Positions 1,347-21,339 are shown, counted from the first letter of the stretch. The stretch is DNA of 21,411 nucleotides from Candidatus Altiarchaeota archaeon (GCA_043804895.1 JAZDIN010000047.1:1-21411); one strand, 5' to 3'. The notes: generated from the letters alone by a model not told the origin. Translations and numbers: made by a program.

Positions 1347-4300
1347 ATGCCGGCAAGGACAGACATTAAAAAAGTGCTTGTTATCGGTTCCGGGCCGATA
1401 GTGATTGGTCAAGCATGCGAGTTTGACTACAGTGGGACGCAGGCCTGTAAGGCTTTGAAGGAGGAGGGTTATGAGGTGGTCCTCGTCAATAGCAACCCTG
1501 CTACTATCATGACTGACCCGGGAATGGCTGACCGGACGTATATCGAGCCCTTGACCATCGAATACTTGGAGAAGATAATCGCGAAGGAAAAGCCTGATGC
1601 TCTTCTTCCTAACCTCGGCGGCCAGACAGGATTAAACCTTTCATCCGAACTCTCGAAGGCAGGTGTCCTCAGGAAATATGGCGTCGAGTTGATAGGGGTA
1701 AGTGCTGACGCCATAGAGCGCGGCGAAGATAGGGAGATTTTCAAGTCCACTATGAAGAGCCTAAACATCGACATGCCCAAGAGCAGCATAACCCACTCAG
1801 TAGAGGAAGCGGAGAAGATAGCTGGAGAACTCGGTTACCCTGTCGTACTCAGGCCGGCATACACACTTGGGGGGACTGGAGGCGGAATAGCCTACAATGT
1901 CGAGGAGCTTCAGACGGTAGTCGCCCGGGGGCTTGCAGCAAGCATTGTCAACCAGGTCCTGGTGGAGGAGGCCATCCTCGGCTGGGAGGAGCTCGAGCTT
2001 GAGGTCGTCAGAGACGCTAAGGGCAATAAAATAACCGTGTGCTTCATAGAGAATGTCGACCCCATGGGAGTACACACTGGAGACAGCTTCTGTGTGGCGC
2101 CTATGCTTACGGTGCCTAAAAGGCTGCAGGAAAGACTCCAGGAGATGTCCTACCGCATAGTGGATGCCATAGGCGTACTCGGCGGATGCAACATACAGTT
2201 CGCCCACAACATCGTCGACGACCGTGTCGTCATAATAGAGATAAATCCGAGGACATCAAGGTCTTCTGCCCTCGCATCGAAGGCTACGGGATTCCCGATC
2301 GCGCGCATATCCACGAAGCTAGCGGTTGGGATAACCCTCGATGAGATACCCTACTTCCGCGACGGCACGCTCGACAAATATACGCCTGGCGGGGACTACG
2401 TCGTCGTCAAGTTCGCCAGATGGGCTTTTGAGAAGTTCCCACAGGCAAAGGACGTCCTCGGCACGCAGATGAAGAGCGTCGGAGAAGTCATGAGCATTGG
2501 CAAGAATTTCAAGGAAGCCCTGCAGAAGGCCATACGTTCCCTCGAGACTAAAAGATACGGCCTGGGACACGCCAAAGGCTTCGATCACCTCTCCGTGGCA
2601 GAGCTGAAGGAGATGCTCATGTATCCCACGAGCGAACGCATATTCCTCATGTATGAAGCCCTCCGCAAGGGTCTTTCGCCTCAGGAACTTTATGACCTGA
2701 CTAAGATAGGCATATGGTTCATCCAGCAGATGAAGGAGCTGGTCGAGTTTGAGGAGGAGGTAAAGAAGTACGGTAACAAAAAACTCCCCGACGCCATACT
2801 CATTAAGGCGAAGGAGGACGGGTTCTCGGACCGCTACCTCTCGGAATTGCTCAGCGTTTCAGAGGATGCTATACGGGCTCAAAGACTGACTGCTGGAAAG
2901 ATAGAATGCTTCGAGCCTGTGCCAGTCAGCGGCGCCGATGCCGCATATTACTACTCGACATATAATGCAAAGGACTCCGTTCCAGTGACGAAGAGGAAGA
3001 AGGTGATGATTCTGGGAGGAGGCCCCAACCGCATCGGCCAAGGAATAGAGTTCGACTACACGTGTGTCCACGCCGCGCTCACACTCCGGCAAGAAGGCAT
3101 GGAGACTATACTCGTCAACTGCAACCCAGAAACTGTCTCGACTGACTATGACACCTCAGACAAACTCTACTTCGAGCCGCTGACTGTCGAGGATGTCCTC
3201 AGCATATACGAGAAGGAGAAGCCTATCGGGGCAATAGTGCAGTTCGGAGGTCAGACACCCCTTAACCTGGCGGAAGAGCTCAAGCGCAACGGAATCAGGA
3301 TACTCGGGACATCGCCGGAGAGTATAGCCCTCGCAGAGGACCGCAGGAAATTTGCCAAGGTAATCACAAAACTTAGGATACCCCAGCCTACAAGCGGCAC
3401 AGCAACCTCTGTAGAGGAGGCTATGGCAGTGGCGAAAAAAATAGGGTACCCCCTAATGGTTCGCCCGTCCTTCGTCCTTGGAGGCCGCGGAATGAGGGTC
3501 GTCCACGACGAGCGGACACTAAGGGAATATGCGCAGACCGCAATCGGTGTGAATCCGGAACACCCCATGCTTATAGACCGTTTCCTCGCTAACGCCTTAG
3601 AGGTTGAAGTTGATGCCATAAGCGACGGGAAGGACGTCTGCATACCCTCGATAATGGAGCATATCGAGCTTGCAGGGATACACAGCGGCGACAGTGCATG
3701 CATAATCCCTCCACAAAGGATTCCGAGAAAGCACGTCAGGACAATCGAAAGATACACAAGGAGCCTTGCCAAAGCCTTAAAGGTCAAAGGTTTGATGAAC
3801 GTGCAGTATGCGATAGCAGACGATAAGGTCTACATACTGGAGGCTAATCCCAGAGCTTCCAGGACAGTCCCGCTTGTCAGCAAGGTCATAGGCCTCAACA
3901 TGGCCAAGGTGGCGACCCAGGCAATGCTTGGGAAGAAGCTTAAGAACATACTACCAAAGTTGAAGAGGATTAGGCATGTGGGTGTCAAAGAGGCTGTGTT
4001 CCCATTCGACAAGTTCCCAGAAGTAGATCCTGTGCTTGGGCCAGAGATGAGGTCCACAGGGGAGGTCATGGGAATCGCGAAATACTCTGGAACAGCATAC
4101 TACAAAGCCCAGGAGGCCGCAGGTTATGCACTTCCCCTTAAGGGAACAATCCTGTTTTCCATAGCTGCGGGAGATAGCAAAAACGCTTCGATGAGGATCG
4201 CTAAGATGTTCCATAAACTCGGCTACAGGATAGTTGCAACAGAAGGGACTAGAAAATTCTTCGAAAAACATGGGCTCAAGTGCGGAAGTGCCCTGAAGAT

Positions 4301-13886: not shown

Positions 13887-13902
13887 TACTTATTTCTGAG
13901 TA
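13887..13902. promoter_or_regulatory. Candidate autoregulatory operator of RbkR
   Basis: Palindrome TACTTA-TTTC-TGAGTA between a TATA-like TTTTATT (13873-13879) and the ATG. An extra half-site CATACTCA lies at 13862-13869. Confidence 0.5.
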
Positions 13903-14549
13903 TGTTATCATATGAGTTCGTGCTTTACTGCCTGGCCGGGAGGCTGAAGTCCCCTTCAGGCCGGCTGTCGATGTCAACATCCGAGTTCGGCCTCTTATTT
14001 AGCGTCTCGCAGCAGACGGCCTCCCGCTACCTGCGTGGGCTTGAGTCGTTGGGTTGGGTTGAGCGAAGGCAAAATGGGAGGGGATTCACACTGAACCTTA
14101 CGTCTGAGGGAGTCGCAGTCTTGAAGGGCATGCACATTAACATCGGAAAATTCCTGGAATCTAAGGCGCCACAGGCATTCGAAGGGAAGGTGGTGTCCGG
14201 GATAGGTGAGGGGGCGTATTATGTGAGACAGTACGCTGACAGGATAGAGGAGGCATTGGGCTATAGGCCGTACTATGGCACCCTCAACATACGCTTTGAA
14301 GGAGGCAAGCCTGAGTTGGCTGCGTACAAGACTGACTATGTCAGCGGCTTCAGGTCAGATAATCGGAGCTTCGGAAAAGCTGAATTGGTTGAGGTGATAC
14401 TGTCTGTCGGCAATCATGAGATAGGCTGTCACGCTATACTCCCTGAGAGGACTCACCACAAGAAGGACCTTGAGCTTATCGCAAGACACAACCTGAGACG
14501 GAAGTACGGGCTGGCAGACGGGCAGAAGGTTCTTGTCTCAGTCAGGTGA
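13902..14549 (+). CDS. ribK: CTP-dependent riboflavin kinase with N-terminal winged-helix domain (RbkR type)
   Basis: wHTH region SQQTASRYLRGLESLGWVER, followed by GKVVSGIGEGAYY, PYYGTLN, PERTHH and LELIARHNLR. Confidence 0.93.
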   Translation: MLSYEFVLYCLAGRLKSPSGRLSMSTSEFGLLFSVSQQTASRYLRGLESLGWVERRQNGRGFTLNLTSEGVAVLKGMHINIGKFLESKAPQAFEGKVVSGIGEGAYYVRQYADRIEEALGYRPYYGTLNIRFEGGKPELAAYKTDYVSGFRSDNRSFGKAELVEVILSVGNHEIGCHAILPERTHHKKDLELIARHNLRRKYGLADGQKVLVSVR

Positions 14550-14550
14550 T

Positions 14551-14711
14551 CCAAGATAGAACAGACCACAGTCTTTTGACTGGTGGATGAATACCTACGG
14601 CATCTGTCTGTTCTACCAGGACCCGATAAAGTGCCTTGCACTTTAAGGGTCCTGCCAAAGCTATTGCTTTGGCTTGGATCATACCACAGCCTTTGGGCTG
14701 TGGTCGTTGAT
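14551..14711 (+). mobile_element. Non-autonomous IS200/IS605-family mini-element (PATE-like), 161 bp, with no tnpA or tnpB
   Basis: The left hairpin ACCACAGTC-TTTT-GACTGGTGG followed by ATGAAT spans 14565-14592. The related right hairpin ACCACAGCC-TTTG-GGCTGTGGT followed by CGTTGAT spans 14683-14711. TGAT occurs at 14547-14550 and 14708-14711, and excision restores an in-frame AMMECR1 stop. The boundary is ambiguous by 4 nt. Confidence 0.75.
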
Positions 14712-15302
14712 TTTCCTCTCCACGATATTCCCGCGCGGGGTCTCCTCAACGAAAATCTGCGCGCTGAACGAATAAAGCCTGAAGCCCTTCTTAGTCCACT
14801 CGTCAGGCATGAGTCCGGCTTTAGCGCAGGTGTGCTGGATGAACTCTTCCACATCCCAGTTCAACTCCACAGGCACCTGCGGCAAGAGAAGGCCCCTCTC
14901 CATCCCCCTCTCGGCTATGAGGCCGTCGCGTCCCACTTTGACTTTACTCAAATACTCCTTCGGGTCTTTTACTTCGATGAGCTGCGGCTTCGTGAGTACG
15001 GACACTTCCACTGATACCATATCCATCTCCTCAGCTCTCACTGGCCTGAACCTCGGGTCCTCCAGTGCGGAGGACACTGCTGCTCGCTCAACAGCCAACC
15101 CCAATTGCAGGACTGGTTCAGGGTAACCTATACACCCTCTCAACTCATGGTTCTTGTGCATTGTGACGAACACACCCCTCTTCTCTGAGAAAACTCCCTT
15201 CAGTGAATCAGGGACCAACGGCCGGTGGCCTTTGAAATTCCCTTCAATGACTGCGCGTGCATACAACACAATGTCCCTACCCTGCTCATGGTTAAATGTC
15301 AT
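14679..15302 (-). CDS. AMMECR1 domain protein (TIGR00296 family)
   Basis: RGVFVT, LRGCIG, DPRF, EVSVLT, VGRDGL, GLLLPQVPVE and CAKAG. Confidence 0.95.
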   Translation of the reverse strand: MTFNHEQGRDIVLYARAVIEGNFKGHRPLVPDSLKGVFSEKRGVFVTMHKNHELRGCIGYPEPVLQLGLAVERAAVSSALEDPRFRPVRAEEMDMVSVEVSVLTKPQLIEVKDPKEYLSKVKVGRDGLIAERGMERGLLLPQVPVELNWDVEEFIQHTCAKAGLMPDEWTKKGFRLYSFSAQIFVEETPRGNIVERKINDHSPKAVV

Positions 15303-16804: not shown

Positions 16805-16892
16805 GTATTCCAAATACGCTCGAAATGTCAATCAGCCAAATAAACACGGGAGGTGCAAGCGAGTAGCTGAATATATCCCTCGCGTATTTGTA

Positions 16893-17279
16893 ATGAGTTT
16901 ATACAGTCGTGGTGCTGGTTTTGAAAGGCAGCTCGTCAGCGAATTCTGGGCTCGCGGGTGGGCTAGCCTGCGGGCTGCAGGCAGCGGAACCCGTAAGGAG
17001 CCCGTGCCTGACGTCGTCGCATTGAAGTGTGGGAGGATAATAATCGTCGAGTGCAAGACCACTAGGAAGGACCGGCTGAGCCTGAAGACGGCCATACTAT
17101 CCCTGGCTGAATTCACGAAAGTCTCAGGAGGGGAAGCCTACATAGCCATCCGCTTCTTCAGGCAAGAGCCGAGATTCTATGATATCAGAAACCTCATGGA
17201 AAAGGAAGACTACACAATCACAGACAAAGACGAGCACATGAGCCTCGACCAGATAACCGGGCAGCAGGAACGACTTTAG
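16893..17279 (+). CDS. hjc: Holliday junction resolvase Hjc
   Basis: RGAGFERQL, RAAGSG, PDVVA and IVECK (PD-(D/E)xK motif). The start was moved to ATG 16893. Confidence 0.93.
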   Translation: MSLYSRGAGFERQLVSEFWARGWASLRAAGSGTRKEPVPDVVALKCGRIIIVECKTTRKDRLSLKTAILSLAEFTKVSGGEAYIAIRFFRQEPRFYDIRNLMEKEDYTITDKDEHMSLDQITGQQERL

Positions 17280-20529: not shown

Positions 20530-21159
20530 ATGGTTGAAAAAGAAGAGGAGATACTCGGTGCCGCAGTCTTGTTCGCAACATTCCTGCTGTTTTTCCTCAT
20601 CATCCTATCCCCAGCATACTTCGTGAACGGCATATACAAAGTTGCAGAAGCCGTATCTCCAACATCAACGACAACATCTACGACGTCAACGACATCGACA
20701 ACAACTTCCACTACAGAATCCACTTCCACCACAACATCATCGACTGGCACGTCCACTTCAACCTCCACAGTCTCCACCACCTCATCCACTTCAACCACGA
20801 TGAGCGGCAGACGATGCTCCTCGGAATCAGAATGTGGCGGAGTGCAAAACGACTTCAAATGCAAGGGTAACAGCATCTACCGCTACACCACAACCTACGC
20901 GTGCAACAACCCTGATAGCCCGCAGTCACAATGCTTCGGCAGGACTCAGGTGAAGGTTGTCGAAGCCTGCGAAGAATACCAGCACTGCACCAACGGCGCG
21001 TGCGTGAACATATACTCCAACGACTGCGACTACAGGTGCGAGACGAGAGGCTACGAACTCTACTACTGCTCAGACGAATGCTCAGGCGACGACACCCAGA
21101 TAGTCCTGCGCGAAGAATGCTCAGAGGAAGAACCAGTATGCTGCTGCATAACGGAGTGA
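20530..21159 (+). CDS. Membrane-anchored surface protein with Thr/Ser-rich stalk and Cys-rich head
   Basis: N-terminal hydrophobic helix, a T/S tract of about 45 residues, and 16 Cys in the C-terminal region ending in CCC. Confidence 0.8.
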   Translation: MVEKEEEILGAAVLFATFLLFFLIILSPAYFVNGIYKVAEAVSPTSTTTSTTSTTSTTTSTTESTSTTTSSTGTSTSTSTVSTTSSTSTTMSGRRCSSESECGGVQNDFKCKGNSIYRYTTTYACNNPDSPQSQCFGRTQVKVVEACEEYQHCTNGACVNIYSNDCDYRCETRGYELYYCSDECSGDDTQIVLREECSEEEPVCCCITE

Positions 21160-21264: not shown

Positions 21265-21339
21265 TGGGCTCGACCGGATTCGAACCGGTGGTCTTCGCCT
21301 CGTAAAGGCGACGTCATAACCGGACTAGACTACGAGCCC
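21265..21339 (-). tRNA. tRNA-Val, anticodon TAC, intronless, CCA not encoded
   Basis: The minus strand reads GGGCTCG TA GTCTAGTCCGGTTATGAC G TCGCC TT-TAC-GA GGCGA AGACC ACCGG TTCGAAT CCGGT CGAGCCC A, a full cloverleaf. Confidence 0.97.

Follow-up and report, generated by a model that had tools for sequence, protein, structure and literature searches.

What is the odd, highly structured stretch of 161 nt that separates two converging genes in the genome of an uncultured archaeon, and how did it come to lie there? The DNA analysed, called the window from here on, has a length of 21,411 nucleotides and constitutes contig C47 of a 1.58-Mb MAG of a Candidatus Altiarchaeota archaeon (genome G000; 71 contigs, 88.7% complete, 89% coding). 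In the window a ribK-like gene of 215 aa (13902-14549, plus strand) runs towards a gene of the AMMECR1 family of 207 aa (14679-15302, minus strand), both taken from the ORF list and supported by alignments with relatives, which for the ribK product cover residues 1-213 of 215. A previous sequence-only reading had interpreted the segment at 14551-14711 as a non-autonomous mini-element. Our analysis indicates that it is very probably a non-autonomous derivative of the IS200/IS605 type, i.e. a palindrome-associated transposable element (PATE). PATEs are a known kind of element, and the copy studied here is a fresh example, belonging to elements that are scattered through the genome. A literature search retrieved no paper on such mini-elements in Altiarchaeota, a phylum that ranks highest for median IS content according to the passages of an archaeal IS survey used here (PMC13343696).

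The element occupies 14551-14711 on the plus strand and is the long form of what we term family A, with boundaries derived from an alignment of 12 copies. Its left end directly abuts the target TGAT (14547-14550), which is one case of the more general motif T-N-A-T. Three parts may be distinguished, namely a left end (a 16-nt linker and a nested hairpin), a 57-nt filler with two hairpins, and a right end (the guide ATCA, a 9-bp hairpin, and a linker with TGAT). The left end, which starts with CCAAGATAG, forms a compound hairpin (14557-14615) that was detected both by an inverted-repeat search and by folding, and in which an outer stem of 10 bp (14557-14566 with 14606-14615) encloses an inner hairpin (14565-14586) and the conserved GGATGAAT. 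The inner hairpin reads ACCACAGTC-TTTT-GACTGGTGG and is followed by ATGAAT. The two-hairpin block (14617-14673), seen from inverted repeats and from the copy alignment, is present in long copies only. At the right end a perfect 9-bp stem closes the hairpin ACCACAGCC-TTTG-GGCTGTGGT (14683-14704), so that the element finishes with ACCACAGCC-loop-GGCTGTGGTCGTTGAT. One nucleotide 5' of this hairpin lies the putative guide ATCA (14678-14681), which is the complement of the terminal TGAT; the latter, a putative cleavage tetranucleotide, forms together with CGT the right linker (14705-14711). Additional nested inverted repeats are found between the left and right hairpins.

The target, the element and both hairpins agree in letters and coordinates with what the sequence-only reading had given for them. 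It had also described the hairpins as two related structures in direct orientation that differ by a compensatory exchange of a T-A for a C-G pair. That exchange was confirmed, while the left inner stem is less perfect than the description implied, consisting of 5 bp (CAGTC/GACTG) and 3 bp (CCA/TGG) with one bulged G. Both subterminal hairpins are on the same strand and the linkers that separate them from the termini are unequal (16 nt left, 7 nt right). The start of the element, CCAAGATAG..., is not the reverse complement of its end, ...CGTTGAT, i.e. there are no terminal inverted repeats, and the flanks show no target-site duplication. With its 161 nt the element is too short for a transposase, and according to the ORF list it is crossed only by spurious reading frames.

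Folded as single-stranded DNA, the element reached -53 kcal/mol compared to -17.6 +/- 2.8 kcal/mol for shuffled sequences (n=200; z -12.8), and none of the shuffles folded as well. The bottom strand folds equally well (z -11.2). Given this excess over the shuffled sequences, and since the sequence recurs elsewhere in the same genome, the structure of the element is far beyond chance. A search of the element against Rfam gave no family, the best score being 21.7 bits compared to a gathering score of 60. Within the whole window one Rfam family only scored above its threshold, namely a tRNA gene near the right end (21265-21339, minus strand, 69.8 bits).

Since the target contains the ribK stop codon (TGA at 14547-14549), ribK was left untouched by the insertion. 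The last codons of AMMECR1 (K-I-NDHSPKAVV-stop, 14679-14711) are read from the element, the gene extending 33 nt into it, and the C-terminus of the protein is now ...VERKINDHSPKAVV-stop as compared to ...VERKIT-stop in the sequence without the element. When 14551-14711 was removed in silico, the minus strand read GTG GAG AGG AAA ATC ACC TGA with the stop codon at 14542-14544, exactly as the sequence-only reading had it, and the reconstructed AMMECR1 stop overlapped ribK by 8 nt. Another convergent overlap, of 4 nt, is present in the ORF list at 17276-17279. At the reconstructed empty junction ...GGTGAT is joined directly to TTTCCTCTCC.

The junction was compared in 12 related genomes that have both ribK and AMMECR1. 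In none of the 12 was the element present, and in 10 of them the two genes converge and abut within approximately 0-20 nt, the other two having an intervening ORF. The prediction of an empty junction in relatives is thereby borne out at orthologous sites rather than by an empty allele, the relatives being other species (ribK 33-53% and AMMECR1 49-64% identical). A search for related loci with ribK as the query retrieved no relative. In 13 of 14 loci the AMMECR1 homologues align only to residues 195-200 of the 207, and the homologues stop 2-3 residues after R/K-I, several of them ending in R-I-x-stop with an overlap with ribK. Judged from these alignments, the homologue ends match the reconstructed VERKIT-stop, and removal of the element restores an AMMECR1 C-terminus like that of the relatives. 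An insertion accounts for both the odd structured spacer of 161 nt and the AMMECR1 C-terminal tail that is 8 residues longer. Both converging transcripts would run into a very stable cluster of hairpins.

Further copies were predicted to exist elsewhere in the genome, each located 3' of TGAT. BLAST searches within the genome did retrieve two other long copies (C66:3563-3726, 83% identical; C25:21146-21314, 81%) and at least eight short copies of about 105 nt that have no counterpart of 14617-14673; the left flank, on the other hand, is not always TGAT but follows T-N-A-T. One short copy with a covarying right hairpin was found in the congeneric genome G002. An alignment of 11 copies from G000 and the one from G002 sets the boundaries of the element from CCAAGATAG... 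to ...TTGAT. Family A thus contains 12 copies, three of them long, and the long form equals the short form plus the 57-nt two-hairpin block, which is bordered by GGA on both sides and was found nowhere else on its own. Pairwise identities within the family range from 62 to 96%, with most copies at 75-91% and the copies on C20 and C26 as the closest pair (96%). The three long copies are 82-89% alike in the 12-copy alignment, the corresponding BLAST values being 81-83% to the window copy.

Family A is not the only one of its kind. Four families (A, B, C and D) whose bodies differ have a right-end module in common, which begins with ATACC or AAACC, continues with a 9-bp stem closing a TTNA-like loop, and ends in T-N-A-T after 2-3 nt that follow the return stem. 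By our own reading, 31 of the 97 perfect hairpins in the genome with an 8-bp stem and a 4-nt loop are of this kind. At least 39 related hairpin-ended modules from the four families are present in G000; 39 were examined, and both ends could be defined in 35. The boundaries and the T-N-A-T rule can be used to annotate at least 39 similar modules in Altiarchaeota MAGs. Copies of types B2, long C and D2 carry an extra double-hairpin block with TGTG/CACA-like borders.

Of 35 elements from the four families, 29 have a tetranucleotide of the form T-N-A-T directly on their left, five have CCAT and one has TAAC; among the 11 copies of family A, 10 have TGAT, TCAT or TTAT there. The target (G)TGAT put forward in the sequence-only reading hence has to be replaced by the wider rule. 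The right-end stems are strictly complementary: for pairs 2-9 of 23 distinct hairpins, all 184 stem cells are Watson-Crick pairs with no G.T, and at five stem positions two or three pair types occur as compensatory changes. The lack of G.T pairs fits selection on a DNA hairpin better than selection on an RNA.

A second set of covarying nucleotides concerns the guide. In 11 of 12 family-A modules the guide tetranucleotide is the exact complement of the terminal tetranucleotide, and the pairs change together, being ATCA/TGAT, ATTA/TAAT, ATAA/TTAT and ACCA/TGGT in G000, with a fifth, ATGA/TCAT, in G002. Of the 11 family-C modules scored, nine were complementary, and one more has ATCA but was scored out of register. 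None of the 10 family-B modules showed such complementarity. A left-end guide tetranucleotide complementary to T-N-A-T was looked for as well, and none could be assigned. In IS608, as far as described in the sections of PMC3597680 used here, it is not the protein that recognises the cleavage sites but a tetranucleotide guide situated 5' of the foot of the hairpin. The guide contacts in IS608 are a mix of canonical and non-canonical ones, whereas the right-end pairing of our element is fully Watson-Crick. The covariation of right-end guides and termini is what the IS608 guide/cleavage-site rule would predict. Such a natural series of copies, in which the guide and cleavage tetranucleotides of the right end change together, lends support to the recognition rule of IS608 from an archaeal lineage and needed no experiment.

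Where, then, is the transposase? A search of G000 with the Y1_Tnp profile (PF01797) gave no match, the assembly being 88.7% complete so that absence is not proven, and tblastn with TnpA from three relatives gave a best E value of 0.42. For TnpB, the profiles PF07282 and PF01385 gave no match each in G000. Contig ends of G000 were also inspected for a collapsed multi-copy IS and none was found, the only overlaps being pairwise ones of 141 nt. An autonomous parent with family-A ends was found neither in G000 nor in the genomes of the order, nor in the public genomes and metagenomes searched. The exact family-A hairpin occurs in G000 alone among the 49 genomes of the order. A search for the family-A right-end pattern in 185,579 species genomes returned two bacterial matches, apparently due to chance, and in metagenomes it returned one unrelated contig, in which a single hairpin precedes ACTTCAT and the family-A left end is missing. 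A 15-nt word from the left end, also tried as a probe, was discarded as too short to be specific, since it gave at least 119 matches in unrelated bacteria. Elements with tnpA or tnpB and the same hairpins, which the sequence-only reading had expected, were found neither in the assembly nor in the public collections. The absence of a cognate TnpA bears on the present mobility of the element and not on its descent.

Relatives of G000 do contain the enzyme. Y1_Tnp is present in 4 of 21 genomes of the taxonomic family and in 17 of 49 genomes of the order. The IS200 elements of genomes G018 and G020 have a length of approximately 650-690 nt, code for a single Y1 tnpA with the HUH and Y motifs, and are preceded by TT[TC]AT. 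At their left end an inner hairpin, with GATGAA after it, is enclosed by an outer stem. Their right end has the general form ATACC-hairpin-..TT[TC]AT and consists of AATACC, a hairpin and ATATTTAT or TCATTCAT. A degenerate right-end pattern was found at 13 sites in G000, 16 in G030, 10 in G026 and 6 in G042, compared to 0-2 per genome for the reversed control pattern, and in G026, G042 and G023 it is located some 90-160 nt 3' of a match to the Y1_Tnp domain. The left end of the sister family B2 matches that of a G018 IS200 starting with the very first nucleotide (72% identity across about 100 nt; the hairpin shows compensating changes). In sequence, family A resembles the IS200 of relatives at its right end only (76-81% over 31-42 nt), and its left end shows no such likeness. 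G030, a genome from the same order that is 92% complete, contains 16 right-end modules with one type of hairpin, ATACCACACCC-TTTA-GGGTGTGGTTGTTGAT, and no match to Y1_Tnp. In G030, as in G000, mini-elements are thus numerous although no transposase was found; G026 and G042 have the modules as well as tnpA.

Several known systems can be set beside these observations. The PATEs of Haloquadratum walsbyi, in the portions of their description used here, lack inverted terminal repeats as well as a target duplication, have a palindrome close to either terminus with a longer distance between terminus and palindrome at the 5' end, are preceded on the 5' side by a targeting sequence of 4-5 nt, and have ends related to IS605-type transposons (PMC3119063). 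PATE-like minimal elements occur in Geobacillus stearothermophilus, and short 'terminal-only' versions exist, according to the same kind of excerpts (PMC10055086; PMC3119063). Our element resembles them in termini, palindromes, 5' linker, target and small size, as far as these sources describe them, and its ends may likewise be related to those of IS605-type elements. It differs in that it comes from Altiarchaeota, that the related autonomous elements are IS200 with tnpA only (no TnpB and no omega RNA), that no transposase was found in the assembly, and that the left end is a nested double hairpin. The PATE assignment follows from the lack of room for a transposase, of inverted terminal repeats and of a target duplication, together with the near-terminal palindromes, the longer 5' linker, the target of 4-5 nt and a probable relation of the ends to those of IS605-type elements. 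The proposal of the sequence-only reading that this is a non-autonomous element of IS200/IS605 type is upheld by the multiple copies with asymmetric ends and without terminal repeats or duplication, by the absence of the element from the ribK/AMMECR1 junction of relatives, by the complementarity of the right-end guide and by the IS200 of relatives, whose ends are built alike.

With IS608 and ISDra2, which have a Y1 HUH TnpA and move by single-strand 'peel and paste', the element shares subterminal hairpins on one strand and insertion 3' of a fixed target without duplication. In contrast to IS608 it has no transposase gene, and one middle base of its target is free (T-N-A-T). Its right end, TTGAT, equals the ISDra2 target named in the sequence-only reading. 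The IS200 of G018, G020, G026, G042 and G023, of about 650-690 nt and with one Y1 tnpA each, resemble our element in the left flank TT[TC]AT and in the nested left hairpin followed by GATGAA, and their right end, ATACC-stem-TTYA-stem-GGT-NN-TTKAT, has the same form as that of the element. The likeness to family A is, however, confined to the architecture and the right end, and a search of the other genomes of the order for the hairpin ACCACAGCC was negative.

For the enzyme and the chemistry of the strands we infer the following, and the element itself may or may not still be mobile. By analogy with IS608, a dimer of a Y1 (HUH) TnpA supplied in trans would attach to the two top-strand hairpins at a time when the DNA is single-stranded and cleave at two sites. 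One of these lies 3' of the flanking T-N-A-T and the other 3' of the terminal TGAT, the latter tetranucleotide being held by pairing with ATCA. A single-stranded circle would be released and the donor resealed, whereupon the circle would insert 3' of another T-N-A-T without duplication. The landing site in the window would have been a GGTGAT located where the convergent genes ribK and AMMECR1 overlapped by 8 nt, with ribK keeping its stop codon and AMMECR1 exchanging its last residue and stop (T-stop) for NDHSPKAVV-stop. Mobilisation in trans is offered as a proposal only, because no tnpA, tnpB or autonomous element with these ends was found in the assembly or in public collections.

The same missing enzyme allows a less dynamic history. 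In this scenario the element is a genuine IS200-type PATE whose lineage has lost the transposase, and the copies are immobile relics that persist since they are harmless at gene boundaries; we regard this as a serious, if doubtful, possibility. Besides the lack of tnpA in the assembly it is favoured by the divergence of the copies (long ones only 82-89% alike, or 81-83% to the window copy by BLAST, and most pairs at 62-91%), by left hairpins that have decayed in several of them, and by G030 with its 16 right-end modules and no tnpA at 92% completeness. Since most copies are just 75-91% identical, much of family A is old and may be immobile. Against the relic scenario, the copies on C20 and C26 are 96% identical, and all four insertions tested (ribK/AMMECR1, RadA, GatE and LeuA) are absent from congeneric genomes and hence post-date speciation. 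Furthermore, perfect complementarity has been kept in the stems and the guide pairs of the right end, and an assembly that is just 88.7% complete may lack the gene. An improbable variant, in our estimation, is that diverse IS200-type mini-elements without a resident Y1 transposase are moved by a visiting virus or plasmid or by an unrecognised enzyme, or have been tamed as structured inserts that are neutral for expression. It draws on their landing on stop and start codons, their folding shut and some in-frame inserts of 34 residues.

Two further readings both appear very unlikely. Short, numerous and extragenic hairpin repeats could be of the REP/BIME kind, served by a domesticated Y1 enzyme of the RAYT type, and not be deletion derivatives of an insertion sequence. 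RAYTs belong to Pfam Y1_Tnp, however, of which G000 has none, and our elements have distinct left and right ends in direct orientation instead of inverted REP pairs. REPs have a conserved GTAG head, which is absent from the element, and a true IS200 has a left end that is collinear with that of sister family B2. Alternatively, a structured small-RNA gene, such as a TnpB omega RNA or a regulatory sRNA, could have been copied around the genome and its structure kept for RNA function. The very stable fold (z -12.8) and the location of other families of elements in the 5' leaders of genes are compatible with this, and published PATEs often encode omega RNAs, at least those treated in the portions of PMC10055086 used here. 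Against it stand the lack of matches to the TnpB profiles PF07282 and PF01385, the lack of an Rfam family (21.7 bits against 60), the equally good fold of both strands (bottom z -11.2) and the complete absence of G.T among 184 stem cells.

Taken alone, the element in the window is an ordinary genomic parasite, and its value lies in annotation and as a worked example. Its sister families show how such elements survive in a genome that is 89% coding, namely at start and stop codons and occasionally in-frame within genes. That the elements land exactly on such codons results from T-N-A-T covering TGA-T, TAA-T and the complement of ATG-A. In 14 of 19 copies of families B and C with both ends, and in one copy of family A (together 15 of 35), the left flank ends in a CAT that, read on the other strand, is the ATG with which a real gene starts. 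From our reading of the N-termini, the genes with abutted starts include those for RadA, a LeuA-like protein, GatE, an IlvN-like protein, an aminoacyl-tRNA synthetase, PIN and HicB. The elements before RadA (C1:~23805-23918), the LeuA-like gene (C4:~20668-20769) and GatE (C38:~3436-3534) are examples from G000. Orthologues in up to five relatives begin at the same Met, and in none of 14 cases was the element found in the 160 nt upstream. With the element taken out, the normal SD-to-ATG or TATA-to-ATG spacing of the relatives returns: LeuA then has GGAGGT-7 nt-ATG, and RadA has a TTTAATAAA box some 30 nt upstream of its ATG.

According to a null model, approximately 46% of those ATG[AG] sites that follow a non-coding base resemble starts, compared to 15 of 19 observed (p ~0.003, and less when a stricter rule of 100 codons is applied). 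We do not claim that start codons are actively targeted, as a YCAT target combined with selection against insertions in coding sequence explains most of the pattern. An element that is folded shut could let a displaced ribosome-binding site or promoter still serve its gene. In some genes of phage T4 a hairpin bridges the ribosome-binding site and the start codon, and one idea, by analogy, is that such bridging may keep the genes next to our elements expressed.

Two copies of family C, each of 102 nt, lie in-frame in long ORFs (C19:13441-13542 and C62:28162-28263 of G000), to which each adds 34 residues, giving 529 aa compared to 495 without the element and 451 compared to 417. The added peptides are similar (YQRPAAKAAGLIRRKLP...), and one of the copies is located just before what is presumably a YD..VD motif of a spermidine-synthase-like protein. 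Rickettsia palindromic elements (RPEs) are small palindromic repeats that are likewise tolerated inside genes, and we know of no transposase family or mechanism established for them. They resemble the in-frame inserts of family C and not the copy in the window.

Many contig ends of G000, including the right end of C47, overlap one other end by exactly 141 nt with 100% identity, which looks like an assembly-graph overlap or strain branching and not like a multi-copy repeat. Pile-ups of elements were seen at two places in G000 (C4:~39290-39470 and C40:~16870-17050). In one case a right hairpin of family D has a family-C copy nested in its loop, TTTAT. In the other, two elements of the family-D type lie in tandem, head to tail, with a TTTAT junction in common, one of them being a variant with a different left end.
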